The translations under genes were made by a program, and so were the position numbers. A DNA stretch of 44,424 nt from Candidatus Limnocylindrales bacterium. GTDB lineage: Bacteria > Chloroflexota > Limnocylindria > Limnocylindrales > CSP1-4. Below, piece by piece: positions 7,892 through 30,614 of the stretch. The notes under the pieces were generated by a model. The model had not been told where the DNA came from. It saw only the letters and a list, made by a program, of their open reading frames with translations, and made no database searches. The DNA lies in contig JBKKCW010000053.1 of NCBI GenBank assembly GCA_046712485.1, positions 1-44,424 on the forward strand. Reading direction: 5' to 3'. Numbering within the stretch: position 1 is the stretch's first letter; each line of letters starts with the position of its first letter.

Positions 7892-7986
7892 GGGTCGTCG
7901 GGTCACAAGACTGCGCAGTATAGGGGCTGGGCCGGTCCGGCCGCCTACGCTCGAATCCCGGTTCCAACTGTCGGCCGATGGTGAGT

Positions 7987-8016: not shown

Positions 8017-8144
8017 CGCCGACGGCCTGCAAGGTCCCATCGCAACGTGCACGCCCAGGGACCAGGAGCCACATCTCCCCGGAGACCAGACGCTGAGCGG
8101 CGCGCCGCCCGCGCCCGGGCCGAATCGCGGCCGTCAACCCTGTC

Positions 8145-12440: not shown

Positions 12441-12456
12441 CCCCGCGGTCGTCGCC

Positions 12457-15428: not shown

Positions 15429-15552
15429 CCGCTCCACCGCTCCTTTGGGCTCCGGGTGACCGACCCGACGGGGGACGACCCGTTCCACCGTTCCTTCAGG
15501 CACCGGGCGACCGAACCGACCCGCGCTGCCCAAATACGGCGCCCCAACCTCC

Positions 15553-15581
15553 TTGACAGCGTCCCGGCCCGCTGCCATCAT
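15553..15581 (+). promoter_or_regulatory. candidate promoter of the LacI-headed operon
   Basis: TTGACA (15553-15558), 17-nt spacer, CATCAT (15576-15581). Confidence 0.3.
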
Positions 15582-15592
15582 CCGCATCGGAC

Positions 15593-15630
15593 CGTTCCTG
15601 AGAACGTTTACAAGAACGTTTACAAGAACG
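15593..15630 (+). promoter_or_regulatory. candidate LacI-family operator region: 2.4 tandem copies of GAACGTTTACAA with an overlapping palindrome
   Basis: GAACGTTTACAA at 15602-15613 and 15614-15625, plus GAACG at 15626-15630. TGAGAACGTTTACA (15599-15612) is a 10/14 palindrome with a central CG, like LacI/GalR operators. CGTTC-N4-GAACG at 15593-15606. Sits 17 nt upstream of the regulator's ATG. Confidence 0.45.
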
Positions 15631-15646
15631 GCGGCAGAGGATCTCG

Positions 15647-16675
15647 ATGCGGGATCTTGCGCGTCCCACGCTTGTCACCGTCGCCCAGCGAGCTGGCGTC
15701 TCGATCGCGTCCGTGTCTCGTGTGATCAACGGCCTGCCGGCCACGCCGGACATGGTCCAGCGAGTCCGTGCTGCTTCGGAGGCCGTTGGGTACGTCCCCG
15801 ACGCCGTCGCCCGCTCGCTCAAGGCGGGACGGACCGGTCAGCTCGCGTTCGCGGTCGCCGACGTGGCCAACCCGGTCTACGTGGCAATGATGCGGGCGAT
15901 CGAGCGAGTGACCAAGGAGGCCGGCTACCGCCTGCTCCTGAGCTCGACCGATTCTCAGCCGGCCGACGAGATTGCGCTCTTGCGCAGTCTGCGCAATCGT
16001 CACGTGGACGGCATGATCCTGATTCCGATCCGGGTCACGCCCGAGTTCGTCGACGAGCTCTGCCAAGCCCCGCTCCCGGTCGTCGTTATCGGCACGCTGC
16101 CTGCCGAGGTCCCAGTCGACAACGTACGAGCCGACTCCCGGCAGGGCGTGGGCCTTGCGATCGCTCATCTGGTTGAGACTGGACGCCAGTCGATCGCGTT
16201 CATCAACGGTCCGATCGACACGGTGCCAGGGGAGGCTCGTCTCGAGGGCTTCCGGGCCGCGCTGGACGCCGCGGGCCGAGCATTCGACGCTGACCTCGTC
16301 GTCACCGCGGAGGATTTCACCTTCGCCGCCGGAAGACGGGCCGCACGCGCCCTGTTCCACCGCGCGCGACCCGATGCCGTGTTCTGCGCCAACGACCTTC
16401 TTGCGGTCGGGGCCCTTCGTCAGCTGATTGATCTCGGGCTGCGCGTTCCGGACGACGTGGCCCTCGTCGGGATGGACGACACAGAGCTCGCCGAGATGAG
16501 CGCCCCGTCGCTGTCGAGCGTCTCGCTCGGCTCGGAGGAGCGAGGCGCGCTGGCGGCAAACCTCCTCCTCGAGCGCCTGGCCAATCCATCGATCGTCATC
16601 CGTCGGCTGCACGTCGCGCCAAGGCTGGTCGTACGCGAGTCGTCGGTCGCCACCATCCGAGGAGCTCACCGGTGA
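15647..16675 (+). CDS. LacI-family transcriptional regulator
   Basis: HTH TLVTVAQRAGVSIASVSRVINGLP, YVPDAVARSLK, and a periplasmic-binding-protein-like C-terminal domain. Confidence 0.9.
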   Translation: MRDLARPTLVTVAQRAGVSIASVSRVINGLPATPDMVQRVRAASEAVGYVPDAVARSLKAGRTGQLAFAVADVANPVYVAMMRAIERVTKEAGYRLLLSSTDSQPADEIALLRSLRNRHVDGMILIPIRVTPEFVDELCQAPLPVVVIGTLPAEVPVDNVRADSRQGVGLAIAHLVETGRQSIAFINGPIDTVPGEARLEGFRAALDAAGRAFDADLVVTAEDFTFAAGRRAARALFHRARPDAVFCANDLLAVGALRQLIDLGLRVPDDVALVGMDDTELAEMSAPSLSSVSLGSEERGALAANLLLERLANPSIVIRRLHVAPRLVVRESSVATIRGAHR

Positions 16676-17577
16676 CCGCCATGTCGGCTATCCGTCGGGC
16701 CACGGGTCGCGAACAGCGGGAGGCCATGGTCTTCCTGGTGCCGGCTCTGATCCCCGTCGTGATCTTCAGTGTCGCCCCGCTCGCGGTCGGCATCTACCTG
16801 GGCTTCACGGACGCAGTCGCCGGTATCGACGTCACGACCAACTTCACCTGGCTGGATAACTACACGCGATTGCTCGGCAACTCGCTGTTCTGGCAGTCAT
16901 TCCTCACGGGCCTCATCTGGGCGTTCGGCGTCACGGCCCTCCAGGGCGTGCTGGGGCTGGCCCTCGCGTTGCTCCTGAACGAGCGACTGCGCCTGCGCTG
17001 GCTGGCAAGGACGCTTGCCCTCGTGCCCTGGGCGATGCCCTCGGTGATCGTGGCCATCATGTGGCGAATGGTCTACCACCCCGACGCCGGGATCCTCAAT
17101 GCGTCGCTTGAGGGTTTGGGGATCCTCGACACAGGGATCAATTGGCTTGGCGGCGTCGATACGGCGTTCGCGGCGGTCGTGGTCGTCGGCGTCTGGGCCG
17201 GGTTGCCGCAGACCACGGTCGCACTGCTGGCCGGCCTGCAGAGCGTCCCCCCTGAGCTCCACGAGGCGGCCGAAGTTGATGGCGCGAACATCGGCCAGCG
17301 GTTCCGACACATCACGCTGCCCCAGATCCGGCCGGTGGCCGATGCAATCTTCTCCCTCAACTTCATCTGGAACTTCAATGCTTTCGGGCTCGTGTACGTG
17401 CTGACCGCGGGCGGGCCGGGAGGCCGGACCATGCTGCCGGCACTCTTCGCGTACAACGAGGGCTTCCGCTACGGGAACTTCGGGTACGCCGCGGCGATGG
17501 GCAATGCGATGGTCATCCTGATCATCGCCCTCCTCGCGATCTACCTGCGGCGGCGCCTCAGGGCGGCTGACGCATGA
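16672..17577 (+). CDS. carbohydrate (CUT1) ABC transporter permease, MalF/UgpA-like
   Basis: Six TM segments and EAA loop EAAEVDGANIGQRFRHITLPQIRP. GTGA overlap with the regulator's stop. Confidence 0.9.
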   Translation: MTAMSAIRRATGREQREAMVFLVPALIPVVIFSVAPLAVGIYLGFTDAVAGIDVTTNFTWLDNYTRLLGNSLFWQSFLTGLIWAFGVTALQGVLGLALALLLNERLRLRWLARTLALVPWAMPSVIVAIMWRMVYHPDAGILNASLEGLGILDTGINWLGGVDTAFAAVVVVGVWAGLPQTTVALLAGLQSVPPELHEAAEVDGANIGQRFRHITLPQIRPVADAIFSLNFIWNFNAFGLVYVLTAGGPGGRTMLPALFAYNEGFRYGNFGYAAAMGNAMVILIIALLAIYLRRRLRAADA

Positions 17578-18410
17578 GGCGGCCCAGCCTGGTGATGCGA
17601 GCTGCTCAATATGTGCTGCTCGTGGCCTTCCTGGTCTTCCTCGCGTTCCCCCTGATCTGGATGATCTCGACCTCGTTCAAGGGCCCGCGGGAACTCGTCT
17701 CGCTCGACCCGACGCTCGTTCCGACGAGTCCCACGCTCGACAACTACATCAACGTCCTCAACGGCCAGGACATCGTCCAGGCGGCCGCGAACAGTCTGTT
17801 CGTGTCGGTCGCAACCGCCGTCCTGACCATCGCCGTCGCCCTGCCGGCAGCCTATGCGCTGGTGCGCTACAAGACGCCGTTCCGCCGGCCGGCGCTTGCC
17901 TGGATTCTGGTCAGCCAGGTCTTTCCCCTGATCCTGATCGTCATCCCGCTGTTCCTGATCCTCAAGGAGATCGGCCTGCTGAACAGCCACGTTGGTCTGA
18001 TCGTGGTCTACGTCGTGTGGTCGCTGCCCTTCGCCATGTGGATGCTGCAGGGCTACGTCAGCACGCTGCCGCGCGAGCTCGAGGAAGCCGGCCTGGTCGA
18101 TGGCGCCGGGCGTCTCCGTGTGCTGCGATCGATCGTCCTGCCATTGCTGGCGCCCGGCATCGTGGCGGCCACGCTGTTCGCCTTCATCTCGGCATGGAGC
18201 GAATTCTTCTTTGCTCTGGTCGTACTTCAGGACCCTGGGCTGGCCACGCTGCCGCTGCTGCTGGCGAGGTTCGTCGGGGTCGAAGGGATCGTGAGGCTGG
18301 GACCGCTGGCCGCGGCCTCGCTGCTCGCGACAATCCCGAGCCTCGCGTTCTTTGCACTCATCCAGCGTCGCCTCACGGAGGGACTGCTCGCGGGAGGTGT
18401 GAAGGGATAG
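17574..18410 (+). CDS. carbohydrate (CUT1) ABC transporter permease, MalG/UgpE-like
   Basis: EAA loop EEAGLVDGAGRLRVLRSIVLPLLAPG. ATGA overlap with the upstream permease. Confidence 0.9.
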   Translation: MRRPSLVMRAAQYVLLVAFLVFLAFPLIWMISTSFKGPRELVSLDPTLVPTSPTLDNYINVLNGQDIVQAAANSLFVSVATAVLTIAVALPAAYALVRYKTPFRRPALAWILVSQVFPLILIVIPLFLILKEIGLLNSHVGLIVVYVVWSLPFAMWMLQGYVSTLPRELEEAGLVDGAGRLRVLRSIVLPLLAPGIVAATLFAFISAWSEFFFALVVLQDPGLATLPLLLARFVGVEGIVRLGPLAAASLLATIPSLAFFALIQRRLTEGLLAGGVKG

Positions 18411-18482
18411 ATCCGTTCAGCAAAGGGACCGGCCACACCGTCGTGGACCAGGTTCGATCACGCCAAAGGAGGAGGCAGACGA

Positions 18483-19823
18483 ATGTCCAGTCGAATTTCG
18501 AGATTACTCGGCGTCGCGTCGATCGCCGTCATGGTCAGTGCCTGCAGCGGTGGCGGCGCCACCACGGCCCCGTCAACAGCGGCGAGCCCTGATGCGGGCG
18601 CGTCCGCCGCCGCCACGGCGAGCCCCGCTGGCGAGCCCGTCGCCCTGCGCTTTCAGAGCCTGGCGTGGCAGGAGCCGGTGATCGCGGCCAACAAGGCAAT
18701 CGTCGACGAGTGGAACGCGGCCAATCCAAACATCCAGGTCGAGTACGTCCAGGGCGACTGGGGCTCCGTTCACGATCAGCTTGTAACTCAGTTCCAGAGC
18801 GGTACCGCGCCAGACCTCATTCACTATGAGTCGGCTGGCATCGCCGGATTCTCAAACCAGGGCTTCCTGGCGGACCTGAAGCCGCTCCTGGCCGACGAAT
18901 TCAAGAACGGCATCGCTCCCGGCGTGTGGGAGGCTGTGACCTACAAGGATGACGGCTGGTACGGCGCGCCGTTCCTGCTCCAGTCGTACGTCGTGTTCGC
19001 CAACGGCGGGCTCCTGGAGGCCGCTGGAGTGGAGCCTCCGACGATCGAGGACCCTTGGACCTGGGACGACCTCCGCGCTGCCGCCAAGCAGCTCACCACG
19101 GGCGATCAGTTCGGCATGGGCTGGCCCCTCAAGAGCCCGACCGCCTCGATGATGAGCCTCTCGCTCAGCTTCGATGGCGGATTCTTCTACGACGAGGGTG
19201 GCAAGACTGTCGTCAAGTTCGGACCGGCCGAGCAGGAGGTCCCACGCCGGATCCACGAGATGATCTACGCAGACAAGTCCATCGATCCAACCTCCATTGG
19301 CCTCAGCGGGGGTGACGTCCTCCCGGGCTTCTTCGGGGGCAAGTACGCGATGATCGGCGGCGCCAACTTCCAGACGCAGCAGATGCTCGAGCAGGCGCCC
19401 GAAGGCTTCGAATGGTTGATGCTGCCCCCACTGAAGGGAATTACCCAGGCACAGGCCGCCAACCCCCAGACCATCAGCATCTCCGCGGCGAGCGAGCATC
19501 CCGCGGAGGCCGCCAAGTTCGTCGAGTTCTTCCTCGACGGCGAGAACCTGGCCAAGCTCGCGATGGGCGACTTCCTCATCCCGACCACCGAGGAGGCCGG
19601 AGCGGCCGTGCTCGCCTCCACCGGTGGCGAGGACGGCTGGGACGTGACGATCGCTTCTGGCAAGGAGCTGAAGCTCGCGCCGTTCCAGAAGGTCGAGGCC
19701 TATCCTCAATGGAAGGACCAGGTTGCCACTCCCGCATTCCAGGAATTCCTCGCGAACAGCATCGACCTCGATACACTCGGGAAGAAGCTGGTCGACGGCT
19801 GGACCCAGGTGGGAGGTGGCTGA
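18483..19823 (+). CDS. ABC transporter extracellular solute-binding lipoprotein (sugar-type)
   Basis: Signal peptide with lipobox VSAC followed by a Ser/Ala/Pro linker. ~446 aa SBP_bac_1-like sequence. Strong RBS AAAGGAGGAGG upstream. Confidence 0.9.
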   Translation: MSSRISRLLGVASIAVMVSACSGGGATTAPSTAASPDAGASAAATASPAGEPVALRFQSLAWQEPVIAANKAIVDEWNAANPNIQVEYVQGDWGSVHDQLVTQFQSGTAPDLIHYESAGIAGFSNQGFLADLKPLLADEFKNGIAPGVWEAVTYKDDGWYGAPFLLQSYVVFANGGLLEAAGVEPPTIEDPWTWDDLRAAAKQLTTGDQFGMGWPLKSPTASMMSLSLSFDGGFFYDEGGKTVVKFGPAEQEVPRRIHEMIYADKSIDPTSIGLSGGDVLPGFFGGKYAMIGGANFQTQQMLEQAPEGFEWLMLPPLKGITQAQAANPQTISISAASEHPAEAAKFVEFFLDGENLAKLAMGDFLIPTTEEAGAAVLASTGGEDGWDVTIASGKELKLAPFQKVEAYPQWKDQVATPAFQEFLANSIDLDTLGKKLVDGWTQVGGG

Positions 19824-19842
19824 CCGATCCGGGTAACCGCGA

Positions 19843-21081
19843 TTGGGGACCGTGACATGTCGCGGTCCCCGATCCGCCGTTTCTGAATTGCCACAGACCG
19901 AAAGGAGACCCACGACGCTGCTCGACGACAAGGCCACGGGCTGCCTCGCCGGGGCCGCCGTTGGTGATGCCCTGGGCGGAGCAACCGAAGGTTGGACGAC
20001 CGACCAGATCCGCGAGCGGTACGGCGGGTGGGTCACGGACATCGTGCCTGCCTTCGAATCGGAGACCCCGAGGGCGGAGCGCTACTCGCGATACGCCAAG
20101 GGCGACGGTCGGATCACCGACGACACGCTGATGACCCAGGCGCTCGTCGAGGTCTACCGGCGACGCCGGCGCCACCTGGGCGCCTATGACGTGGCCGAAG
20201 AGCTCGTCCCGTTGCTGATCGGCCGGACCCAGTGGATCCCGGACATGGAGCGTGAAGACACCCCGTTTCAGCGCCTCTTCCTCGCCGAGAAATGGCTGGT
20301 GACCAAGCTCCACTACGGGCACGCCGATCCGCGCGAGGCCGGGTTCGGGAACATCGTCAACTGTGGGGCCGCGATGTACATGGCCCCGGTCGGGATCGTC
20401 AATGCGGCGGATCCCGAAGCGGCGTACGCAGAGGCGATCGATATCGCCGGCGCCCATCAATCGAGCTATGGACGAGAGGCGGCCGGGGTAATGGCTGCCG
20501 GGGTCGCGGCTGCGATGGCGCCACACGCCACCGTCGAGGACGTGATCGACGCCGGCCTTCGCGTGGCCCACGACGGCACTCGCCAGGCGATCGACGCGGT
20601 CGTTTCGTGCGCTCGCGACCTTGGGTCGTGGCGGGACGCTTTGGGGCCGCTTCGTGACGCCGTGGCTCCATTCGACACTGTCGGGCCGGACTATCGGGAC
20701 CCGGGTTTGGGCGCTCGTCGGGCGAGCCGCGTGCATTCGATCGAGGAGCTTCCAGTCGCCTTCGGACTCCTGCTCCTGGCGCGCGGGGACTATCGCGAAG
20801 CCGTGCTCGGAGCGGTGAACTACGGCCGGGACTCTGATTCGATCGCGACGATGGCCGGCGCTCTTGCCGGCGCCCTCGGCGGCCTTGACGCCGTCCCGGA
20901 ACCCTGGCGCATCGCCGTGGCCGCCGCGAGCCTGATCGACCTGGAATCGCCCGGTCGCGAGCTGGCCGCGGTCGCCCGCGAGGTCATCGAAGCCGATGGA
21001 CGACGTCGTGCCGCCCGCCAGCGCGCGTTCGACGAGCTGACGGGAGACGAGCGCCGTGCGCATCACCTGGATCCAGCCTGA
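19843..21081 (+). CDS. ADP-ribosylglycohydrolase-family protein (paralog 1)
   Basis: LAGAAVGDALGGATEGW N-terminal motif and GRDSDSIATMAGALAGALGG C-terminal motif. Start is uncertain: the track uses TTG 19843, TTG 19888 is in frame, and AAGGAG at 19902-19907 sits 10 nt before an in-frame CTG at 19918. Confidence 0.85.
   Translation: MGTVTCRGPRSAVSELPQTERRPTTLLDDKATGCLAGAAVGDALGGATEGWTTDQIRERYGGWVTDIVPAFESETPRAERYSRYAKGDGRITDDTLMTQALVEVYRRRRRHLGAYDVAEELVPLLIGRTQWIPDMEREDTPFQRLFLAEKWLVTKLHYGHADPREAGFGNIVNCGAAMYMAPVGIVNAADPEAAYAEAIDIAGAHQSSYGREAAGVMAAGVAAAMAPHATVEDVIDAGLRVAHDGTRQAIDAVVSCARDLGSWRDALGPLRDAVAPFDTVGPDYRDPGLGARRASRVHSIEELPVAFGLLLLARGDYREAVLGAVNYGRDSDSIATMAGALAGALGGLDAVPEPWRIAVAAASLIDLESPGRELAAVAREVIEADGRRRAARQRAFDELTGDERRAHHLDPA
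19845..19870 (+). other. stem-loop just after the binding-protein gene (possible mRNA-stabilising or partial terminator hairpin)
   Basis: GGGGACCG (19845-19852) pairs with CGGTCCCC (19863-19870) across a 10-nt loop. No clear U-tract (followed by GATCCGCCGTTTCTG). Confidence 0.4.
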
Positions 21082-22411
21082 AGACCTGATCCGCCACGAG
21101 TTCGTTCAAGCGGCGGACGAGGGCAAGGATGTGGCAGGCATCGTCGAGCGCTGGGTCGCGGCCGGTGGCGACTGCGTTCCTCCCGGCGTAGGTGCCTCGG
21201 ACCCGCCGGCCTCCGCGGAGCTGTCACGGCTGGCGCGCACGTTGCTCGGGGAGATCGACGCCTTGCCGACCACCGACGACACCGATGAACCGAGCGACCT
21301 GGAACGCGTTCAACGCCATTGGCGACGACCTCCGGCGCTGCCGCCGATCCCCCCGCAGGAGGCCCTTCGTGACCGCCTTCATGGCGCATGGCTGGGCCGC
21401 GCAATCGGGTGCCTGCTAGGCAAACCGGTCGAGAAGATCCCCCGAGCAGGGATACGGGAGATCCTGGAGGCAACTGGTCGCTGGCCGCTGTCCGGCTACT
21501 TCACCGCGGCTGGGCTGCCCCAGGATGTTGCGGCGCGTTGGCCCTGGAACCGGGCCAGCCGTCCAACCAGTCTCGCCGAGGTGATCGACGGGATGCCCGA
21601 GGACGACGACCTCAACTACACGTTGTTGGCGCTAAGCGTTCTCGAGGATCACGGCCCTGATTTCACAACGGACGACGTCGCCCGGACATGGCTGAGGGAT
21701 GTCCCTGCTCTTCGCGTCTTCACCGCCGAGCGGGCGGTCTATCGAAACCTGCTCGACGGGCTCCAACCACCGGACACCGCCAGGGTCGCAAATCCGTATC
21801 GCGAGTGGATCGGCGCCCAGATCAGGTCCGACCTGTACGGCTGGGCCCGGCCCGGCGACCCGCACGGCGCAGCGGAGCTCGCCTGGCGCGATGCCCGGCT
21901 GAGCCATACCCGGAATGGGATCTACAGCGCGATGTTCGTGGCCGGAATGGCGTCGGCGGCCCTGGTCAGTGACAAGGTTGACGTCGTCCTGGATGCCGGG
22001 TTGTCGGTCATCCCGCCCAACAGCCGCCTGGCCTCGGAGATCGCGGCGGCACGCCACGTCGCTTCGACCACCGACGACTTCGAGGTGGCGGCCGACCTGG
22101 TCCACGATCGCAATCGCGGGCGACACTGGGTTCATGCCATCAACAACACAGCGCTGATCGTCCTTGCGCTCTGTGTCGGGGGCGGGGACTTCGTCCGGTC
22201 GATCTGTCTCGCTGTGTCGGGCGGCTGGGATACCGACTCCAACGGCGCCACCGTCGGCGCCGTCGCAGGCGCGATGGCAGGCAGGGCAGGGCTGCCGGAA
22301 TCGTGGGCCGCTCCCCTGAAGAACCGACTGTCGACGAGCATCCCGGGCTTCGATAACGTCGGGTTCGATGAGCTTGCCGCTCGAACTGCGGCCATCGTCG
22401 CCACGACGTGA
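21056..22411 (+). CDS. ADP-ribosylglycohydrolase-family protein (paralog 2, ~105-aa N-terminal extension)
   Basis: [30 protein letters not shown] and [21 protein letters not shown] motifs. GTG 21056 overlaps paralog 1 by 26 nt. Confidence 0.85.
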
Positions 22412-24387
22412 CGCTCCCCGGTTTCAATCCGTATGTTCCGCGCCCGATCGACCTCCCGACGGCCGTTCCGCTCGACCCGCACGCGGATCTGTCGGTGCTC
22501 GACGAGGCGAAGATCTTCGCCGCGCCCGATGACCCCTCCGACTGGCCGGCGTGGCGCGCCACGCTCGAGCGTTGGCGGAACGAGGCCCGTGCACGGCTGG
22601 CGTACTCCGGCGCCCGATACGCCAACGCCCCCGCGGAAGGGTTCAGCGTGTGTATGGCATGGCTGTGGGACGAGACGCTGTACGACCACGAGCTCGGTCG
22701 CTTCACGGTCGACGCGTTCGTCGACGCCGGCGAACGCGAATTCGGTGGCTTCGATGGCGTCGCGCTGTGGCATGCCTACCCGGTGGTCGGGATCGACGAC
22801 CGCGACCATTTCGACTTCTATCGCGGCGTGCCGGAGCTTGCGGACGTTGTGGGCGCATTCCAGCGGCGCGGTGTTCGCGTCTACCTGACGTACTACCCGT
22901 GGGAGACCGGCGACAATCCCTCAGCAATCGAGGCTATCGCTGAACTCGTGGCCCAGACGGGAGCCGACGGTGTCTTCCTGGACAGCACCAAGGAGGGGAC
23001 GGTATCGCTGCGGGCAGCACTCGACGAGATACGGCCCAATTTGACCATGGAGGCCGAATCGCGGGTGCCCCTCGCGAGGATCGAGGACCACGCCATGTCA
23101 TGGGCCCAGTGGTTTGCCGACTCGAGTGTGCCGGGCGTGCTCAGAGCAAAATGGTTCGAGCGCCGGCACATGCTCCACCACGTTCGCCGCTGGCACCGCA
23201 GCCACCTCGACGAACTCCACTCGGCGTGGCTGAACGGCTCTGGCATGCTCGTCTGGGAATCCGTGTTCGGCGTCTGGGTCGGCTGGAGCGAGCGAGACCG
23301 AGCGCTGTTCCGGTCGATGCGTCGTGTCCAGCGCGAGTTTGCGCAATGGCTCCGATCAGGAGACTGGACGCCGCTGGCCGACCACACGGGCGACGACGCC
23401 CGGATCTATGCATCGCGCTGGATCCACGACGGGCGGCCCCTATGGACGATCGTGAATCGCGGAGCCGCATTGACTGGCCCGTGGCTGATCACCGACGACC
23501 GCCCCGGAAGCCGCTGGGTCGAGCTGACGAGCGGTGTCGACTTGACTGCGTCGAGCTTCGGCGACGGTCGCGTCGCCGTAGGTGGAACAATCGCCGAGGG
23601 TGGGATTGCGGCGGTCATGGCTGTGCCGGCGGAGCCCGGGTCGGCGCATGCACCGGCAATGACTCCGGCGCCCGCACTGAGGTCGCCGTCGTTCCCGGCT
23701 CGAGCGGTGATCCGCTTGCCCACGCGTGCTGTCCCGCATCGTTCCGTCCCCGCCGGCATGGTGGCGGTCCCGAGCGGCCGCCAGGACATGCTCGTCAGAT
23801 ATCGATTGAGGGAGACCGGCCTGTATGGCGAAGCCCCCTTCGTCGACGAGTGGAAGCCCCTCCCGCCTCGCCTCCACGAGCCCGCAACGATGCGTCGGGA
23901 AGTCCGTTTCGGGAGCTTCGCGATCTCCGAGCGCGAGGTGACGAACGCCGAGTTCCGCGCGTTCCGCCGGGCGACTCGTTACGAGCCGGTCCGACGAGAA
24001 CGTTTCGACCGAGCCGGTACCGGCCCGCCTGATGCGCCGGCCACTCACGTCGAGCTCGCTGATGCCCGCGCCTACGCGGGCTGGGCCGGCGTCCGCTTGC
24101 CGACCGAAGACGAATGGCAGATCGCCGCCGAGAAAGGGCTTCTCGGACGACTCGAACCCCTGGTCTGGAACCTGACCGAGAGCGAGCACGCAGACGGCCG
24201 AACACGCTTCGTCATTCTCAAGGGCGGCAGCGGGTTCACCAGCGATGTGTCCGACTGGTACTTCGATGGCGGGCCGCAACCGCCCGAGGCGTCAATCAAG
24301 CTGCTCCTGCTTGGCGCCGGACTCGGCAGGTCGCCGTGGATCGGCTTCCGCTGCGCTGTTGACCTTGAAAACGAATTGCCCGGATGA
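22408..24387 (+). CDS. two-domain protein: N-terminal glycoside-hydrolase-like (TIM-barrel-like, inferred) region fused to a C-terminal FGE-sulfatase (SUMF1/EgtB/PvdO) domain
   Basis: C-terminal ~200 aa: [24 protein letters not shown] and [30 protein letters not shown], typical of the FGE-sulfatase fold. N-terminal ~430 aa has [12 protein letters not shown] and [13 protein letters not shown] stretches reminiscent of GH-like barrels (weak call). GTGA overlap with the upstream gene. Confidence 0.7.
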
Positions 24388-25265
24388 CCGCCTCGAGCGC
24401 CGACGACGTGCCTGTCAGCCGACTGGACCTCCGGCATGCATCCGCCCCGTCACCGGCCCTGGGCGGATCGATCGAGTACTTGCTGTACCAGCCCGAGGTC
24501 GGCGGCGACCTTCGATTCCCTGTGGTCTACCTCCTGCATGGCCGCGGCGGCTCGATGACGGATGTCCGGCCGGCGCTCGCGCGCATCGATCGATCCATCC
24601 GCGACCGGCTGGTGCCCCCGTTTCTCGTCGTCGCGCCCGACGCCCCGTGGTCCAACCGCTCGAGCTGGTATGTCGATTCGAGATTTTCCGGATCTCCTCC
24701 TGGGAGGCCGATCGAAACGGCCCTTGTCCGCGACCTGGTCGATCACATCGACGCGTCCCATCCGACGATCGCCGATCGCTCCGGACGTATCGCGGCCGGC
24801 GTGTCGATGGGCGGGGCAGGCGCGCTCCGATTCGCCCTGGCGCACCCGGACCGGTTCGCCGCGGCAGTCTGCCTGAGCCCCGCGATCTACGATCCACTGC
24901 CGCCCAGCGATTCGTCGATCCGTGGATCGGTCGCATTCGGGCGAGATCGGGTGCCATTCGACCCGAGCACGTACGAGGCGTTGTCCTACAGGCGTCTCCT
25001 GGCCTCGTTCGGCCGGCAACATCCGGTTCGACTTTGGATCGGTGTCAGCAACCGGGAAATGCCGCCGTCGGACCCAACGGCCACGGGTCACGGCCTCGAC
25101 CATCAGGCTGCTGCGCTTTTCCTTGCGGCACGAGCGGTTCCCGGCATCGACGCATCACTCCTCGTCGTCGAGGGCGGGCATGACTGGCCCACCTGGTCGG
25201 CGATGCTCGAGACAGCGATACTCGATGTTCTTGGTCGGGGTACGACGCGCGGTGTGGAGCCATGA
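24384..25265 (+). CDS. alpha/beta-hydrolase, putative esterase family
   Basis: [12 protein letters not shown] and nucleophile elbow [20 protein letters not shown], typical of the esterase D / enterochelin esterase-like family. ATGA overlap upstream. Confidence 0.7.
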
Positions 25266-26485
25266 CGCGGCTTTTGCAGGGTGGAGCGATGTCCTCGCCC
25301 CGGCCGGCACTCGATGGCGTCCGCGTCATCGAGTTGGCCACACTGTTTGCCGGCCCGCTGACCGCGACGTTTCTCGGCGACTACGGCGCATCGGTGATCA
25401 AGATCGAGCACCCCCGGCAGCCGGATGCGTCGCGCGGCCACGGTCCAACCAAGGACGGCATCGGCCTCTGGTGGAAGGTCATCGGCCGGAACAAGCGGAC
25501 GATGACGCTCGACCTCTCAACGGCTGATGGCCAGGCGATCCTAGTCCAGCTCGCAGCGCGGGCCGACGTCCTCATCGAGAACTTTCGACCGGGCACGCTG
25601 GAACGCTGGAATCTGGGGTACGAGCGGCTCGCCGCGGAGAACCCGGGGCTCGTGTTCGCTCGCGTGACGGGCTTCGGCCAGGTCGGCCCGTACGCCCGGC
25701 GACCGGGGTTCGGAACCCTGGCCGAGGCGATGAGCGGGTTCGCCGCATTGACCGGCGAACCGGACGGACCGCCGACGCTTCCGCCGTTCGGGCTCGCGGA
25801 TGGGATCGCCGCGCTGGCGACTGCGTTCGCGATCATGACCGCGCTCGAGGCGCGCCGAGCGTCCGGTCGGGGCCAGGTCGTGGACCTGGCGATCATCGAA
25901 CCGATCCTGTGGCTGCTCGGGCCCCAGATCAGCGCCTACGATCAGCTTGGCGAGGTCCAGCCCCGGACGGGCAATCGGTCGCGAAACAACGCCCCGCGCA
26001 ACCTGTACCGCACGGCCGACGGTCGATGGCTGGCCGTGTCGACGAGCTCCCAGCGGATCGCCGAACGGGTCATGCGGCTGGTCGGACGCCCTGATCTCCT
26101 CAATGAGCCGTGGTTCGCGACGGGCCGAGGACGCGCCGAGCACGGCGCCGAGCTGGATAGCGCCGTCAGCGCGTGGGTTGGCCAGCGGCGAGCGGATGAG
26201 GTGGAGCGCGCCTTCGAGGACGCGGAGGCGGCCGTCGCGCCCGTCTACGATGTCCGCGACATCATGGCCGACCCGCAATTCGCGGCCCTCGGCACCATCG
26301 CACGCATCGATGATCCGGAGCTCGGCTCCATCGCCATGCAGAACCTGCTGTTCCGGTTGAGCGACACGCCCGGAGCGATTCGCTGGACCGGTCGACCCCA
26401 CGGGGCTGACACGGACTCGATCCTGGGAGAGCTCGGGATCGGGACCGACGAGCTCGCACGCCTTCGACGCGACAGGGTCGTCTGA
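25262..26485 (+). CDS. family III (CaiB/BaiF) CoA-transferase
   Basis: LDGVRVIELATLFAGPLTATFLGDYGASVIKIEHP N-terminal signature, GLADGIAAL Asp region, ~400 aa. ATGA overlap upstream (ATG 25289 is an alternative start). Confidence 0.9.
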   Translation: MTRLLQGGAMSSPRPALDGVRVIELATLFAGPLTATFLGDYGASVIKIEHPRQPDASRGHGPTKDGIGLWWKVIGRNKRTMTLDLSTADGQAILVQLAARADVLIENFRPGTLERWNLGYERLAAENPGLVFARVTGFGQVGPYARRPGFGTLAEAMSGFAALTGEPDGPPTLPPFGLADGIAALATAFAIMTALEARRASGRGQVVDLAIIEPILWLLGPQISAYDQLGEVQPRTGNRSRNNAPRNLYRTADGRWLAVSTSSQRIAERVMRLVGRPDLLNEPWFATGRGRAEHGAELDSAVSAWVGQRRADEVERAFEDAEAAVAPVYDVRDIMADPQFAALGTIARIDDPELGSIAMQNLLFRLSDTPGAIRWTGRPHGADTDSILGELGIGTDELARLRRDRVV

Positions 26486-26487
26486 CC

Positions 26488-27354
26488 GTGTCGGCCGAGC
26501 TGCAGCTGGCCCCGGCACTCACCTCGCTCTACGTCCCGGGCGACCGGCCGGACCGATTTCCAAAGGCATTGGCGAGCGACGCTGACGAGGTCATCCTGGA
26601 CCTCGAAGACGGCGTGGCCCCGGCCCACAAGGTGTCCGCCCGTGAGGCCGTCGCCCGGTTCGCCGCGGATCGGCACACAAAGGCGGTCCAGGTCCGGATC
26701 AACGGTCGCGACACGCCGTGGTGGTCGGACGATCTCGCCGCCGTCGCAGCCGCGCCGGGTCTCGCCGGCATCCGTCTCCCCAAGGTCGAAACGCCTGACG
26801 ACATACGAATAGTCGCCGCGCGCCTGCCAGCCGACGGTTCGGTGCGGATCCATGTCCTGATCGAGACGCCTCGCGCTGTCGAGGCGGCCTTCGAGATCGC
26901 CACGGCGCACCCGTTCGTCTCGTCGATCGCGCTTGGCGAGGCGGACCTTCTATCGGTGCTGTCGATCACCGACGATCGTGGCCTTGCATGGGTTCGCGGC
27001 CGGATCGTGGTTGCGGCGGGTGCTGCCGGCCTTCGTCCGCCCCAGATGTCCGTGTTCACCAACCTCGAGGACGACGCCGGGCTAGCCGCATCGTGCCGCG
27101 AAGGGCGCGGTTTGGGCTTTCTTGGTCGAGCGGCGATCCACCCGCGCCAGGTGCCGATCATCGTGGATGCCTTCCTTCCGTCGCGTGCCGAGGTCGTCGA
27201 GGCGTCGCGTCTCCTGGACCTCTTGGCAGAGGCACGCGGCGCCGGGCGAGGCGGCTTCGTCCTGCCCGATGGCCGCTTCGTTGACCAGGCGATGGCTGGC
27301 CACGCAAGAACAGTCGTCGCGCTGGATGCGCGCGGGTCGAGCAACGATGCTTGA
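26488..27354 (+). CDS. HpcH/HpaI-CitE family acyl-CoA lyase (citryl/malyl/citramalyl-CoA lyase-like)
   Basis: LYVPGDRPDRFPKALASDADEVILDLEDGVAP signature of CitE-like lyases. GTG start lies 2 nt after the CoA-transferase stop. Confidence 0.85.
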   Translation: MSAELQLAPALTSLYVPGDRPDRFPKALASDADEVILDLEDGVAPAHKVSAREAVARFAADRHTKAVQVRINGRDTPWWSDDLAAVAAAPGLAGIRLPKVETPDDIRIVAARLPADGSVRIHVLIETPRAVEAAFEIATAHPFVSSIALGEADLLSVLSITDDRGLAWVRGRIVVAAGAAGLRPPQMSVFTNLEDDAGLAASCREGRGLGFLGRAAIHPRQVPIIVDAFLPSRAEVVEASRLLDLLAEARGAGRGGFVLPDGRFVDQAMAGHARTVVALDARGSSNDA

Positions 27355-27399
27355 CCGCCGGCCGGCCGCTCCCTGCACCCCGGTATATCCTCTCCGCCT

Positions 27400-27487
27400 G
27401 GAGAGGTGGCCGAGCGGTTGAAGGCGGCGCTCTTGAAAAGCGCAGAGTTGCAAGACTCCGTGGGTTCGAATCCCACCCTCTCCGCCA
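27400..27487 (+). tRNA. tRNA-Ser (anticodon UGA), class II with long variable arm, CCA encoded
   Basis: Acceptor GGAGAGG/CCTCTCC, D-arm TGGCCGAGCGGTTGAAGGCG, anticodon stem GCGCT/AGCGC with loop CTTGAAA, long variable arm, T-arm GTGGGTTCGAATCCCAC, discriminator G, then CCA. Confidence 0.93.
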
Positions 27488-27541
27488 TTCCCCAGCGCCG
27501 GACGCGCGGTGCGTGCGTTGTTGGACTCCCTGCGCTGACGG

Positions 27542-30169
27542 TCAATAGGGCGCCGGTCCGTCGAGCACCTCGCGCACCTTGCGACCGAGCTCCGCGGGCA
27601 CGAAGGGCTTTGCCAGGAACGCGACGCTCGAGTCGAGGACCCCCTGTGCCGACAACACCTCGCCGGCGTAGCCGGACATGAACAGGACTCGCGCCTCAGG
27701 GTGGATCGCGGCGAATTGGTCCGCGACTTCCCGCCCGCTGAGGCCGGGCATGATCACATCAGTCACGAGCAGATCGATCCGGCCTTCGTGGGCCGCTGCG
27801 GCGTCGAGCGCCGCCTTGCCGTCCTGCGCCGCGATGACCCGGTAACCGTTCCGCTCCAGGACCATCGCCGCGAGACGGCGAACGGACTCCTCGTCCTCTG
27901 CCAGCAGGATCGTCTCGTGGCCGCCTTCCGGCGAGCCGCGCGCGCCCGGATCGGCCGCGGCGGTCCTACGGGGATCCGCCTGTCTCGGGAGGTACACCCG
28001 GAACGTCGTGCCTTCGCCGACCGAGCTCGTGACGTCGATGTGACCACCGGACTGCTCCACGATGCCGAGAACCGTGGCCAGGCCGAGGCCCGTCCCACGG
28101 CCGCGATCCTTGGTTGTGAAGTAGGGCTCGAAGATCCGGGCGAGCGTCGCGTCGTCGATCCCGACGCCGGTGTCGCTGACCGAGATCGCGACATATCGCC
28201 CCTCGCGGGTGGCGGACGCCTCGGCTGCATCGTCGCCCCCCAGGTCGACATTCGCCGTCGACAACACGATTGAGCCACCAGCCTCGAGCGCGTCACGTGC
28301 GTTGACGACGAGATTGAGGATGACCTGGTCGAGTTGGCCGACGTCCGCCTGCACCCAGCCGAGATCGGACGCGAGCTCGGTGCGCAGCTCGATGTCCTCG
28401 CCGATCAGGCGCCGGAGCATCGGCTCGATATCGGATACCACCGCGTTGATGTCGACCGGCTCGGGTCGCAGGAGGCTCTGCCGCCCGTAGGCGAGCAGCT
28501 GGCGGGTCAGGGTCGCGGCGCGCCCCGCGGCGGCGTTGATCGCCGAGATGTCCTCCTGGAGTGGGTTGTCCGGCTCGAGGGACTGGGCCAGCAGATCGCC
28601 GTGTCCGGTGATCGCCGTGAGCAGATTGTTGAAGTCGTGGGCGATGCCTCCGGCCAGCCGACCGACGCTCTCCATCTTCTGGACATGCCGAAGCTGGCTC
28701 TCGAGCTCCCGTCGCGCCGTCACGTCGAGGGCCACACCGACCAGCCGCACGGGCTCGCCAAACGCATCACGCACCACGCGACCCTGCGTCACGATCTGGA
28801 CTGCCTGAGCGCCGGGCGGACCCATCCGGCACTCCGCGACGTATTCGCCGTCGGTCGCCGTCGCCCGTTCGAGCGCCTGGCGAAGGGTCTGCCGATCGTC
28901 GGGATGGACGAGCTCAACAAAGGCCCCGAAGGTCCCACCGAACGATCCCTTCGGGATCCCGACGATCGTCTCGAGGCTCTCCGACCAGCGGATCGTGCCC
29001 TCGGTCATGTTCCAATCCCAGGTGCCCATCCGCCCGGCCTCGAGGGCGAATGCAAGCCGCTCCTGGCTCTCGCGGAGCGCATCCTCGGCGGCGTGTCGTT
29101 CGCTGACGTCGCGAATGATCACGGTCTTGCCCGGTTCATGCCCGAAACCGAGGTCGGCAACTGTGGATTCGGCCCAGAACGTGCTGCCGTCCGCCCTTCG
29201 TGCCTCGAGCTCCACGGGACGACCTGCCTCGAGCTCTGATCGCGTTTGTGGTTCGCCACGGCCATGCCCGTCCGATCGAGCTCGATCGAGGTCGATCACC
29301 GCCGAGACGGGCTGCCCGATCACATCCTCCGCCGACGACCCAACGATGCGCTCGGCCGCCTCGTTGAACATGACGACGCGATCGTCGCGGTCGGTGACGA
29401 TGATGGCGTCCGGCGCAGCGGCGAGCAGCATGCGGTAGCGGCCCTCCGACCGGCGGATCCGGCGGACGAACCAGATGAATACGGTCCCGGCGATGGCCAG
29501 CAACAAGGCCGTGGCCGCCGACGCGACGATGAACAGGAGATCGCGAACCCAGCGGGCGCCTTCACCGAGGACGGCCGAGAAGCGGTCCTCGAGGATCGTC
29601 AACCGCTCGTTCACCGATCCGATCTCGGCCACGATGGCATCCACCGTCGCCGGATCCGGATCGCCCGACGAGATCGCATCGCGGAGCCGGTCGCCGTGGG
29701 CCACGAGCTTGTCGATCAGGCCGTCGCCCTCGGTCCAGATCGCGATCGCCTGGTCGATGTAGCTCACGCGGCGGAAGGCGCGGAACGTGTTGATCAGCGT
29801 CGGGATATCGGCCGGATGATTGTGGCCCTGGAGAAAGCCGGCATAGGCGACGTCGAGGTCGGGGTTCGGCTTCTCGAGCTCCACCCTGGCGATCTTGTCG
29901 CCGAGCGGCACGGAGATCGCGTCGAGGTACGCGTCGTACTCGGCCTCATCCTGCGTGTCGGCGTAGCGGATCAAGTGGAAGACGGCGTCCTTCTGCCCTT
30001 TGCTGTACAGCCCTTCGCCGCCCACGAACGCGCGCACGCCGGATTCGACCTGCAGGCTGAAATAGATGATCGCGAGCAGGCCGATGGCCGTGAGCACGAG
30101 CAACGCGATGCCCGCCCATAACCGGCCCCACTGCGACTCGCTTCTGCTCCGGACGCGCGTGACGGACAA
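27542..30169 (-). CDS. hybrid sensor histidine kinase/response regulator (TM-sensor-TM, PAS x2, HisKA, HATPase_c, REC)
   Basis: H-box [17 protein letters not shown], ATPase G-boxes (DTGVGID, GTGLGLA), C-terminal receiver [12 protein letters not shown]...[14 protein letters not shown]...KPF, and PAS-like segments. TTG 30169 is preceded by GGGGAGG. Confidence 0.9.
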
Positions 30170-30600: not shown

Positions 30601-30614
30601 CCGAGGCCGAACGT

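Follow-up and report, generated by a model that had tools for sequence, protein, structure and literature searches.

Ten genes, all on the + strand, occupy positions 15647-27354 of the 44,424-nt stretch of DNA analysed here (the window; Table 1). The open reading frames are present at the coordinates listed, each with a coding-type GC3 of 0.75-0.85, and both the gene set and its nine junctions agree with the first-pass annotation. Adjacent genes overlap by 4 nt at LacI/PermA, PermA/PermB, ARH2/Fus, Fus/Est and Est/CoAT and by 26 nt at ARH1/ARH2 (an identical 26-nt overlap is found in loci L087 and L088), and gaps of 2 and 72 nt separate CoAT from CitE and PermB from SBP, respectively. The SBP/ARH1 gap is 19 nt if ARH1 starts at the TTG codon at 19843, which gives a protein of 412 aa vs ~385 aa in homologues, and is wider if the true start lies downstream of the GAAAGGAGA ribosome-binding site (19900-19908).

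Table 1. Genes and regulatory features of the operon and its boundaries
Feature	Coordinates	Strand	Evidence or remark
Promoter-like site: TTGACA, 17-nt spacer, CATCAT, extended-10 TG	15553..15581	+	sigma-70-like match
Two overlapping LacI-type operator half-palindromes, TGAGAACGTTTACA and CAAGAACGTTTACA	15599..15624	+	12-bp tandem repeat
LacI-family repressor (LacI)	15647..16675	+	Pfam LacI plus Peripla_BP_3/1/4; best NCBIfam models, RbsR
ABC importer permease A (PermA), UgpA/MalF-like, CUT1 type	16672..17577	+	BPD_transp_1; NCBIfam
ABC importer permease B (PermB), MalG/GlcU-like	17574..18410	+	BPD_transp_1; NCBIfam
Lipoprotein solute-binding protein (SBP)	18483..19823	+	SBP_bac_1; lipobox MVSAC-SGG
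ADP-ribosylglycohydrolase-fold enzyme (ARH1)	19843..21081	+	PF03747, E = 2e-52; start codon uncertain
Second, deeply divergent ARH-fold enzyme (ARH2)	21056..22411	+	PF03747, E = 9e-54
Fusion protein (Fus): N-terminal (beta/alpha)8 barrel and beta-sandwich, C-terminal FGE-fold domain	22408..24387	+	PF03781; Foldseek
Cytoplasmic CE1-like serine esterase (Est)	24384..25265	+	PF00756; GVSMGG nucleophile motif
Family III CoA-transferase, dicarboxylate clade (CoAT)	25262..26485	+	PF02515, E = 9e-120
CitE-like beta-hydroxyacyl-CoA lyase (CitE)	26488..27354	+	PF03328
tRNA-Ser(UGA) gene	27400..27487	+	ARAGORN; marks downstream operon boundary

The promoter-like site is the sole sigma-70-like match in the region 15000-28000; it is weak on its own because ~0.9 matches are expected by chance, but the operator that follows closely downstream lends it support. 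In the related loci, the palindrome G(G/T)AAACGTTTAC is present upstream of LacI in 2-3 copies, and 304 of the 314 occurrences of the operator core AAACGTTT in 3.4 Mb of such loci (200/206 and 104/108) are located no more than 250-300 nt upstream of LacI. In the window, the only clear operator is the one upstream of LacI, with one 3-mismatch match inside Fus. The near-exclusive position of the core supports a single regulated promoter. We take the operator core to resemble the RbsR and PurR boxes of E. coli. Given the overlapping genes, the lack of terminator-like sites on the + strand inside the operon and the lone promoter-like site with an operator just downstream, the ten genes are a real operon, a single regulated unit, and these signals are consistent with the single LacI-controlled transcript that had been predicted. 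No ABC ATPase homologue is encoded within the window, so the importer indeed comes without an ATPase gene, and no ribokinase gene was found there either; the window's operon is a ribokinase-less variant. The trp genes are located close to this operon.

Predicted activities of the operon products

The domains anticipated in the first-pass annotation, namely PF03747 (twice), PF03781, PF00756, PF02515 and PF03328, all score above the curated cut-offs in a Pfam search of the ten proteins, which additionally yielded matches to LacI, BPD_transp_1 (two) and SBP_bac_1. The nearest solved relatives of SBP are sugar-binding proteins, with weak scores. Di- and oligosaccharides are the typical cargo of CUT1 importers and, to our knowledge, ADP-ribose derivatives are not among the cargo known for them.

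The two ARH proteins show ~28% identity to each other. In ARH1, the motifs GDALG...TE, TDDT and DSDS are invariant among 24 homologues, and the AlphaFold2 model (pLDDT 80.9; top fold matches MJ1187, DraG and ARH3) confidently predicts an ARH fold. ARH2 possesses a conserved N-terminal extension of ~100 aa, with the motif TWxQPED and no Pfam match, and its invariant residues include E126, EDDD182-185 and DTDS392-395. With the acidic and Thr/Ser metal-site motifs kept invariant, both proteins are predicted to be competent ARH enzymes. All characterised enzymes of this kind that we know of act on ADP-ribose derivatives. The S. coelicolor proteins SCO2028-2031, termed 'uncharacterized DraG/ARH homologues' (PMC9411070), are probably the counterparts of the cluster's ARH genes in the Streptomyces form described below; of these, SCO2028 and SCO2030 were assayed as recombinant proteins on a single substrate, uridine-linked alpha-ADP-ribose, and showed no activity (PMC13036486).

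The description of Fus as a glycosidase-like/FGE fusion holds with respect to both folds, which were matched by Foldseek (GH13 and GH36 enzymes plus FGE) on a structural model of moderate quality (pLDDT 62.9), but the catalytic Cys pair is missing from the FGE-like domain: no cysteine of Fus is invariant, and C649 alone is nearly so. The PF03781 match is limited to residues 496-584, and residues 1-441 have no Pfam match even at E <= 10. The family of the N-terminal domain consists of 1312 clusters at 50% identity, within which natural PfkB-Fus and Fus-esterase fusions are found, as well as a member with a dockerin. No signal peptide was found in Est, and the solved structures closest to it are those of feruloyl and acetyl-xylan esterases.

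Among the named NCBIfam models, CoAT scores best against those for succinate-glutarate, formyl-CoA and succinyl-CoA:mesaconate transferases, without reaching any of the equivalog cut-offs; its PDB matches include SUGCT and YfdE, and its identity to counterparts in related loci (~70%) is the highest among the operon products. The top NCBIfam model for CitE is RipC/Ccl (150 bits vs a cut-off of 375), and the nearest PDB chains are 9nzb and 8khl ('acyl-CoA lyase beta chain'), followed by malyl-CoA lyases. The LacI protein scores 213 and 190 bits against RbsR models, well below the equivalog cut-offs. Because the equivalog-level models all score far below their cut-offs, the named specificities of LacI, CoAT and CitE are leads only.

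Conservation and variation of the gene cluster

Two sets of loci were compared, 83 anchored on the fusion protein and 80 further ones anchored on ARH2, the latter from among the at least 589 species genomes that encode the ARH pair. About 77 of the 83 fusion-anchored loci and most of the ARH2-anchored ones contain the cluster in collinear order, and hence the gene arrangement is far beyond chance. The operon is conserved across hundreds of actinobacterial species; the hosts of the cluster include Micromonosporales, Jiangellales, Pseudonocardiales, Streptosporangiales, Micrococcales and Thermoleophilia, as well as genomes labelled Chloroflexota, Acidobacteriota and Deinococcota, such that the co-occurrence anticipated for related genomes extends across orders and even phyla.

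The invariant core of the cluster is ARH1 and ARH2, usually with CoAT and CitE, which follow the ARH genes in 60 of the 80 ARH2-anchored loci, including loci without Fus, Est or the importer, and are absent from the other 20. Fus, Est, the importer and LacI count as accessory parts: in the ARH2-anchored set, the importer is present in 61/80, the LacI gene in 63/80 and Est in 14/80 loci (Est is also found in ~40% of the fusion-anchored loci). Thus, the esterase and the fusion protein belong to the window's operon, as first described, but not to the core of the system. A ribokinase gene is present in 78/83 fusion-anchored and 63/80 ARH2-anchored loci; the PfkB gene of the orthologous operons is a ribokinase, with the Jiangella copy scoring 312 bits vs the TIGR02152 cut-off of 299.65.

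Up to four divergent ARH paralogs are encoded in one operon. Fus and two further paralogs (ARH3/4) tend to substitute for one another: among 80 loci, 37 contain only Fus, 33 only ARH3/4, 7 both and 3 neither (Fisher p = 5e-12, a statistic that ignores phylogeny). In Streptomyces, the cluster takes the form ARH3-ARH4-ARH1-ARH2-RbsK-CoAT-CitE, with no adjacent importer, LacI gene or operator, and its neighbours are lgt and the trp genes, within the conserved core of the chromosome.

A candidate route for a ribose conjugate and its alternatives

The ribokinase in most orthologous operons points to ribose as the released sugar, and this interpretation is favoured also by the RbsR-like LacI and the PfkB-Fus fusions. 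The ribosyl-conjugate substrate suggested in the first-pass annotation thereby gains independent support. There is a precedent in the ribokinase-centred Rus loci with variable ARH, esterase and glycoside hydrolase content (10.1101/574913). We consider it roughly an even bet (probability of about 0.5) that the operon scavenges an exogenous ribose-containing conjugate under an autoregulating RbsR-like LacI repressor.

For the nature of the substrate and for each catalytic step, we infer the following route. The SBP lipoprotein and the two permeases would import the compound, with energy presumably supplied by a shared ATPase of the MsiK type whose gene lies elsewhere, and the cytoplasmic, metal-dependent ARH1/ARH2 pair would cut a bond at the anomeric carbon of ribose; possible targets are O- and N-ribosides and 1-O-acyl-ribose. 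Fus might strip a further sugar-linked group, a role that the two extra ARH paralogs would take in other lineages, and in the window's lineage the CE1-type esterase would remove an acyl decoration. Free ribose would be phosphorylated by the ribokinase, the gene for which is placed inside most orthologous operons and presumably elsewhere in the window's genome. The acid part, a C4-C6 hydroxy-dicarboxylate resembling citramalate, malate or hydroxymethylglutarate, would be activated by the family III CoA-transferase and then split by the CitE-like lyase into acetyl-CoA and a small oxo-acid. If this reading is true, ARH-fold enzymes, so far known only for the removal of ADP-ribose from proteins, serve catabolism. 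The ribose-conjugate reading is weakened by the lack of ribokinase in the window, by the activity of the characterised ARH enzymes on ADP-ribose derivatives and by the loss of CoAT/CitE from a quarter of the ARH2-anchored loci; furthermore, we know of no natural compound that joins ribose to a beta-hydroxy-dicarboxylate.

The loci without CoAT/CitE would also be accounted for by two unrelated modules with no common substrate: one would scavenge a riboside or ribose and consist of LacI, the importer, the ARH proteins and optionally ribokinase, and the other (CoAT and lyase) would degrade a dicarboxylate in its free form, for instance citramalate, malate or itaconate. CoAT/CitE are found upstream of LacI, not at the 3' end, in some Microbacterium loci (L155, L168) and on the opposite strand in L144, and their closest named relatives function in itaconate, malyl-CoA and related dicarboxylate pathways. 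However, their adjacency to the ARH genes spans several orders and phyla and persists without the importer, Fus and Est; neither an itaconyl-CoA hydratase gene nor a dicarboxylate transporter gene accompanies the pair; and its separate transcription, considered in the first-pass annotation, is unlikely in the window, where Est and CoAT overlap and no promoter-like site or operator was found before CoAT. We regard this two-module arrangement as unlikely.

Somewhat less likely still, the substrate could be not a small riboside but an oligosaccharide fragment of a ribofuranose-bearing polysaccharide, such as an acyl- or carboxyalkyl-decorated cell-wall glycopolymer or microbial exopolysaccharide, with ARH1-4 and Fus serving as exo-glycosidases for different linkages. 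Such a substrate would fit the typical CUT1 cargo, the multiple divergent ARH paralogs, the GH13/GH36-like barrel of Fus, the CE1-like Est and a distant Fus relative with CHB_HEX_C, Fn3-associated and dockerin modules, which are typical of extracellular polysaccharide-degrading enzymes. Unknown polymers were likewise suspected as targets by the authors of the Rus study (10.1101/574913). However, no gene for a secreted depolymerase was found in or beside the operon, and the CoA-transferase and lyase would be left without an explained role. Ribose-containing polysaccharides are, moreover, uncommon.

The Streptomyces form, without importer, LacI gene or operator, makes an endogenous substrate possible, in which case the pathway would recycle a metabolite of the actinobacteria themselves, either a ribosylated cofactor or a product of damage, and the importer would have been added later in some lineages. 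The location of this form next to lgt and trp genes, with trp genes also close to the window's operon, speaks for such recycling, but the dedicated importer and the LacI gene in most ARH2-anchored loci argue against it, and we know of no candidate endogenous compound; this scenario appears improbable. Even harder to credit is the possibility that the ARH proteins are true ADP-ribosylhydrolases (of protein, nucleic acid or small-molecule targets) with unrelated transport and CoA genes as neighbours: PF03747 membership, the intact metal-site motifs and the listing of SCO2028-2031 as candidate hydrolases in the ADP-ribosylation literature (PMC9411070) stand against the translational coupling of the ARH genes to genes for transport and catabolism that a sugar-type repressor controls, the conserved link of the ARH genes to ribokinase and CoAT/CitE, the lack of ADP-ribosyltransferase genes near the operon and of matches between the operon and defence-system models, and the inactivity of SCO2028 and SCO2030 on the one substrate tried (PMC13036486).

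Comparison with known systems

The searchable literature assigns no homologous cluster to a pathway, in line with the initial impression that no characterised pathway has such a composition. The ADP-ribosylhydrolases ARH1, ARH3, DraG and Tri1 resemble the operon's ARH pair in their all-helical fold and in the acidic motifs that bind the metal, but the identity is only 17-24%, the operon proteins are larger (about 385-450 aa), and their genes lie in a catabolic context without a partner transferase; SCO2028 and SCO2030, which probably come from an equivalent cluster, were inactive on one ADP-ribose substrate (PMC13036486). The classical ribose operon (RbsR, RbsK, ribose ABC importer) resembles the described system in the RbsR-like repressor and in the ribokinase of most orthologous operons, whereas its importer is RbsABC (CUT2) rather than CUT1 (SBP_bac_1 and two MalFG-like permeases), and the window lacks RbsD and adds hydrolases and CoA enzymes. 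Itaconate degradation (Ict, Ich, Ccl; RipABC of Yersinia and its Pseudomonas aeruginosa counterpart) likewise relies on a CoA-transferase and an (S)-citramalyl-CoA lyase of the CitE family, and among NCBIfam models the window's lyase scores highest against RipC; however, it reaches 150 bits vs the equivalog cut-off of 375, the window has no itaconyl-CoA hydratase gene, and its CoAT/CitE pair is embedded in a sugar-type operon.

The yegTUV genes of E. coli, the function of which was still unknown in 2024 (PMC10819704), comprise the ARH-family YegU, the PfkB kinase YegV and a nucleoside-type transporter, with a dedicated repressor. The likeness is one of gene composition: yegTUV has an MFS transporter, a GntR-type regulator and a single ARH gene, and lacks the fusion protein, esterase, CoA-transferase and lyase. 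The Bacteroidetes Rus loci (Glowacki et al., 10.1101/574913) are likewise linked to ribose and join genes for ribokinase, transport and regulation (the regulator being of the LacI type in some loci) to variable enzymes that include ADP-ribosylglycohydrolases, esterases and unclassified glycoside hydrolases. Rus uptake is through the SusC/D outer-membrane system, in contrast to the Gram-positive CUT1 ABC importer of the described operon, the enzyme types named in the accessible part of the Rus description include no CoA-transferase or CitE lyase, and ARH proteins are encoded in some Rus loci only, whereas the ARH pair is universal in the described system; the window's operon, for its part, lacks the ribokinase. 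What is new here is the ribokinase in most orthologous operons, the core formed by the ARH pair and the interchange of Fus with ARH3/4.

Operon organization and transcriptional control

The ten genes that the first-pass annotation read as a single catabolic operon for a ribosyl or glycosyl conjugate encode a LacI-type repressor, two permeases (PermA and PermB), a binding lipoprotein (SBP), two ADP-ribosylglycohydrolase (ARH)-fold enzymes (ARH1 and ARH2), a glycosidase-like/FGE-fold fusion protein (Fus), a CE1-like esterase (Est), a family III CoA-transferase (CoAT) and a CitE-like lyase (CitE). All ten ORFs are present, each with a coding-type GC3 of 0.75-0.85, and all the predicted Pfam families score above the curated cut-offs. 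The junctions are also as described: stop-start overlaps of 4 nt at five positions (LacI/PermA, PermA/PermB, ARH2/Fus, Fus/Est and Est/CoAT), a 26-nt overlap of ARH1 with ARH2, and gaps of 2 nt (CoAT-CitE), 72 nt (PermB-SBP) and at least 19 nt (SBP-ARH1). The start codon of ARH1 is uncertain, with a TTG at 19843 versus a strong ribosome-binding site further downstream, at 19900-19908; the homologues are about 385 aa long.

The operator sequence assigned to LacI in this cluster is GTAAACGTTTAC. The equivalent position in 75 related loci holds two or three copies of a near-perfect palindrome, G(G/T)AAACGTTTAC, whose 8-bp core falls within 250-300 nt upstream of LacI in 200 of 206 occurrences across 1.8 Mb of fetched loci, and in 104 of 108 across a second set of 1.6 Mb. 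Across the surveyed loci, the core does not occur before CoAT/CitE; the sole other match in the window, a weak operator-like palindrome, is within chance expectation. The repressor combines an HTH domain with a periplasmic-binding-protein fold (Pfam) and has a palindrome at its own promoter that is kept across loci, as expected of the LacI/GalR family; its best model matches are to RbsR, well under the respective cut-offs. No terminator-like site on the + strand interrupts the cluster. The operator position and the uninterrupted + strand support, short of RNA-level proof, the proposal of one autoregulated, LacI-controlled transcription unit. The operator region of the window is a tandem direct repeat, whereas the related loci carry a pair of perfect palindromes spaced about 43 bp from each other; local duplication may have reshaped the window's operator.

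The operon lies between serS and a tRNA-Ser(UGA) gene, and its flanking genes are housekeeping ones. The upstream neighbours encode an H+-pyrophosphatase, BacA, ArgR, GreA, class I LysRS (PF01921) and SerS, the last two directly adjacent; their longest ORFs share about 370 nt, which requires a serS start downstream of the first GTG. Beyond the tRNA gene follow a convergent hybrid histidine kinase gene and then trp and aro genes. Two long open frames in this region combine domains that are usually separate and could be gene fusions or adjacent genes sharing a frame by chance. In locus L171, the window's closest metagenomic relative, the gene just 3' of CitE, where the window has tRNA-Ser, encodes a match to the Mu-transposase C-terminal domain (7637-8854). 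A mobile island integrated at the tRNA was considered and rejected: the window contains no second copy of the tRNA-Ser 3' end and hence no trace of integration targeted to the tRNA, and the base composition is that of the flanks.

Features of the operon and its surroundings in the window
Feature	Position	Strand	Remarks
Class I lysyl-tRNA synthetase, longest ORF	12334-14091	+	directly 5' of serS
serS, longest ORF	13722-15428	+	gene at about 14100-15428
Promoter-like site TTGACA-17 nt-CATCAT	15553-15581		single one ahead of LacI
Two overlapping operator-like sites, TGAGAACGTTTACA and CAAGAACGTTTACA	15599-15624		5' of LacI start at 15647
12-bp tandem direct repeat AGAACGTTTACA	15600-15628		about 2.5 copies
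Operon, LacI to CitE	15647-27354	+	ten genes
Weak operator-like palindrome CGAGAACGTTTCGA	23995-24008	+	3 mismatches; inside Fus coding region
tRNA-Ser(UGA) gene	27400-27487	+	45 nt past CitE stop codon
trpE and trpC/trpB region	30525-36950		within about 3 kb of the operon
Long open frame with IGPS, PRAI and PALP domains	33678-36950	+	trpC/trpF-like/trpB
Long open frame with shikimate kinase and 3-dehydroquinate synthase	40057-41751	-	

Conservation and modular composition across genomes

The cluster is real and robustly conserved. Full-length homologues of Fus are found in 491 species-level genomes, and the order LacI-PermA-PermB-SBP-ARH1-ARH2-(PfkB)-Fus-(Est)-CoAT-CitE recurs in about 77 of 83 Fus-anchored loci (tblastn with the window proteins), which bears out the predicted co-occurrence of these genes; 78 of the 83 have the PfkB gene and 34 have Est. 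ARH2 is encoded in at least 589 species, with carriers among the Micromonosporales, Jiangellales, Streptomyces, Streptosporangiales, Pseudonocardiales, Propionibacteriales, Micrococcales and Trueperaceae; Baekduia and metagenome-assembled genomes with the labels Limnocylindria and Acidoferrales also have related clusters. All 80 ARH2-anchored loci encode ARH1; a ribokinase and LacI are each found in 63, the importer in 61, CoAT with CitE in 60, Fus in 44, two further ARH paralogs, ARH3 and ARH4, in 40 and 20, respectively, and Est in 14. These counts define an invariant core of ARH1 and ARH2, usually accompanied by the ribokinase and the CoAT/CitE pair, with the importer, regulator, Fus and Est as add-on modules. 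The operon as originally delineated stands as real and conserved, but the conserved core differs from the window's full complement, and the FGE label is misleading (see below). The window variant, with Est and no ribokinase, is shared with L171 and hence is not an assembly artefact.

In Streptomyces the cluster takes the form ARH3-ARH4-ARH1-ARH2-RbsK-CoAT-CitE; it lies beside lgt and trp genes, and the locus lacks an importer, a repressor and an operator. In S. venezuelae, the ARH-RbsK-CoAT-CitE cluster directly adjoins lgt, trpA, trpB, trpC and trpE, and the window operon also lies close to trp genes (see the table). The shared trp setting is more suggestive of a long-established place in the chromosome than of a mobile island. 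A 525-aa S. venezuelae protein without a Pfam match, considered as a possible relative of Fus, is ARH2 with low-complexity inserts.

Fus and ARH3/4 are strongly anti-correlated in the 80 loci (both in 7, Fus only in 37, ARH3/4 only in 33, neither in 3; kinship ignored), which suggests that they perform equivalent steps and that one step has undergone non-orthologous replacement. The alphaproteobacterium Devosia sp. Root413D1 carries a lone copy of Fus (L077, 9992-11983; 62% identical), probably acquired by horizontal transfer from an actinobacterium and flanked by genes for proteins with matches to accD-type carboxyltransferase and Mur-ligase/FolC-type domains. Loci that contain Fus alone, in Devosia and Nonomuraea, were searched for functional clues to this protein and yielded none.

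Enzymes and importer encoded by the cluster

Both ARH proteins match PF03747 far above the cut-off of 26.2 bits (ARH1, 179 bits; ARH2, 183.6 bits), and the model of ARH1 has a confident ARH fold, with matches to MJ1187, DraG and ARH3. The acidic and Thr/Ser metal-site motifs are kept in both proteins across orthologues. In ARH1, the invariant residues are D42, E49, T92-D93-D94-T95 and D330-x-D332-S333 (24 sequences), and in ARH2 they are E126, E182-D183-D184-D185 and D392-T393-D394-S395 (8 sequences); their correspondence to E41, D77 and D314 of ARH3 is drawn by motif rather than by structural superposition. The two proteins share about 28% identity with each other and 17-24% with solved ARH enzymes. 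ARH2 has an N-terminal extension of about 100 conserved residues with no family match.

Fus consists of a (beta/alpha)8 barrel and a beta-sandwich followed by an FGE-fold domain. Its match to PF03781 (73 bits; cut-off 23.3) covers only positions 29-132 of the 255 in the profile, and Foldseek matches to 1y4j and 6s07 confirm the fold of the C-terminal domain. No cysteine is invariant among 13 orthologues, C649 (in GFRC) alone being nearly so, and Pfam detects no DinB domain, which holds the iron site in EgtB; Fus should accordingly be classed neither as an FGE, for which it lacks the catalytic copper-binding cysteine pair, nor as a non-haem iron enzyme. The name under which Fus is publicly labelled, 'SUMF1/EgtB/PvdO family nonheme iron enzyme', is unsupported given the missing cysteine pair. 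Residues 1-441 have no Pfam match even at E <= 10, so that membership in a known GH Pfam family finds no support at the sequence level; the barrel and sandwich resemble GH13 and GH36 (clans GH-H and GH-D) at the fold level only (Foldseek E = 6e-9, TM-score 0.33-0.46, identity 10-13%; model pLDDT 62.9). Many acidic residues of Fus are invariant, none with an assignable role. The cluster exposes a whole family of such glycosidase-like/FGE-fold proteins, with about 1300 clusters at 50% identity, in which the FGE-fold domain was also found in nine of ten distant members scanned (the tenth, with 437 residues, may be incomplete). Its features, which include natural PfkB-Fus and Fus-esterase fusions and an extracellular member with a dockerin, point to a carbohydrate-active role linked to ribokinase.

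The esterase is a cytoplasmic, CE1-like protein (PF00756, 81.4 bits; cut-off 22) with a G-x-S-x-G nucleophile motif, GVSMGG, and a C-terminal GGHDW. The window protein has 293 aa; in M. globbae (L003, 11955-14120), as in some other Micromonospora, the esterase is a longer form, there of 721 aa, with extra beta-propeller (SBBP) repeats.

The importer appears to be of the CUT1 type, with two MalF/MalG-type permeases and an SBP_bac_1 lipoprotein; no ABC ATPase, ribokinase or further ARH gene was found in the window. The importer ATPase is assumed to be a shared one of the MsiK type, as in actinomycetes; in Baekduia, a MalK-like gene lies 3' of the cluster. Orthologous operons carry a ribokinase as their PfkB protein, and the one from Jiangella scores above the TIGR02152 cut-off. 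CoAT matches the full PF02515 profile (400.6 bits, 1-366/366) and falls among dicarboxylate-specific family III enzymes, and CitE groups with citramalyl- and malyl-CoA lyases. Both stay below every equivalog threshold (CitE scores 150 bits with the RipC model, for which the cut-off is 375), and with every equivalog model below its cut-off no substrate specificity can be assigned to CoAT.

Proposed pathway and relationship to known systems

The cluster is best classed among sugar-conjugate catabolic operons, and the enzyme families from which it is assembled have not been seen in such a role before. The interpretation in the first-pass annotation stands as far as computation reaches, and ribose can be added to it as the likely sugar. 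Gene content, gene order, the operator and the link to ribokinase are observed; for the chemistry, all of which we infer, the preferred reading, with a probability of about 0.5, is the scavenging of an exogenous ribose-containing conjugate. The CUT1 system would import the compound, the ARH-fold pair would cut at the anomeric carbon of ribose, and Fus (or ARH3/4 in other lineages), sometimes with the esterase, would strip further groups; ribokinase would then phosphorylate the ribose, and CoAT and the CitE-like lyase would convert a hydroxy-dicarboxylate moiety to acetyl-CoA and an oxo-acid. Bacillithiol fragments, methanopterin, O-acyl-ADP-ribose, apiosides, Nostoc exopolysaccharide, and hydroxymethylglutaryl and malyl esters of plant glycosides were considered as substrates and none fits all parts; we know of no natural compound that does.

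Among the alternatives, the one that survives best, although unlikely, is that the cluster joins two co-located but chemically independent modules. Somewhat less probable still is an oligosaccharide substrate derived from a ribofuranose-bearing polymer. That the pathway recycles an endogenous metabolite, as the form of the cluster in Streptomyces suggests, is improbable.

The S. coelicolor genes SCO2028-2031, which we place by position rather than by sequence, presumably lie between gltB and the trp genes, the setting that the cluster has in S. venezuelae, and the SCO2028 and SCO2030 proteins probably come from the equivalent cluster. These four adjacent ARH genes are listed as 'uncharacterized DraG/ARH homologues' (PMC9411070). 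Genuine de-ADP-ribosylation by the ARH proteins is the least plausible alternative, given the catabolic gene context, the lack of an ADP-ribosyltransferase gene nearby and of matches to defence-system models, and the failure of SCO2028 and SCO2030 to act on a single ADP-ribose substrate (PMC13036486), the sole published activity data found. The absence of a PADLOC match and of a neighbouring transferase gene likewise speaks against a role in anti-phage defence or toxin immunity.

Under the scavenging reading, the cluster would provide a specific and testable function in metabolism for a large branch of orphan proteins in the ADP-ribosylhydrolase superfamily (ARH2 in at least 589 species genomes), whose ARH2-type members are currently carried as uncharacterised hydrolases by the ADP-ribosylation field. 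It also suggests that actinobacteria of soil and plants encounter some ribose-containing nutrient with a frequency that makes an importer dedicated to it worth retaining. A more far-reaching joint reading, which we advance tentatively and at rather less than even odds, is that ARH1/ARH2 and ARH3/ARH4 would act as purely catabolic glycosidases (on non-nucleotide ribofuranosides or acyl-riboses), without precedent among ARH-fold enzymes, that the Fus N-domain would be a new glycoside-hydrolase family obligatorily coupled to an FGE-fold module, and that, together with CoAT and the lyase, they would form a pathway for a ribosylated hydroxy-dicarboxylate or a ribose-decorated glycan that is common in the environment but has escaped recognition. 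In that case, ADP-ribosylation signalling would not involve four of the eight 'orphan ARH homologues' in S. coelicolor.

The initial assessment that no known pathway has this composition agrees with the searchable literature, in which no published function was found for such a cluster, the topics of ADP-ribosylhydrolases and ribofuranosidases included. The CoAT/CitE pair resembles itaconate degradation (Ict-Ich-Ccl) in two of its three steps, but this identity of the cluster was rejected because the hydratase is missing, no itaconyl-CoA hydratase gene having been found in any surveyed locus, and the lyase is below the equivalog level. The yegTUV genes of E. coli, whose function is unassigned, also combine an ARH-family protein with a PfkB kinase (PMC10819704). 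The nearest concept is the ribose utilization system (Rus) of Bacteroidetes, which is ribokinase-centred with variable ARH, esterase and unclassified GH enzymes (10.1101/574913). A ribokinase within the locus, the Rus-like hallmark, is absent from the window and from L171. The cluster can be viewed as a Gram-positive counterpart to the Bacteroidetes Rus, and the substrate of either system would inform the other.
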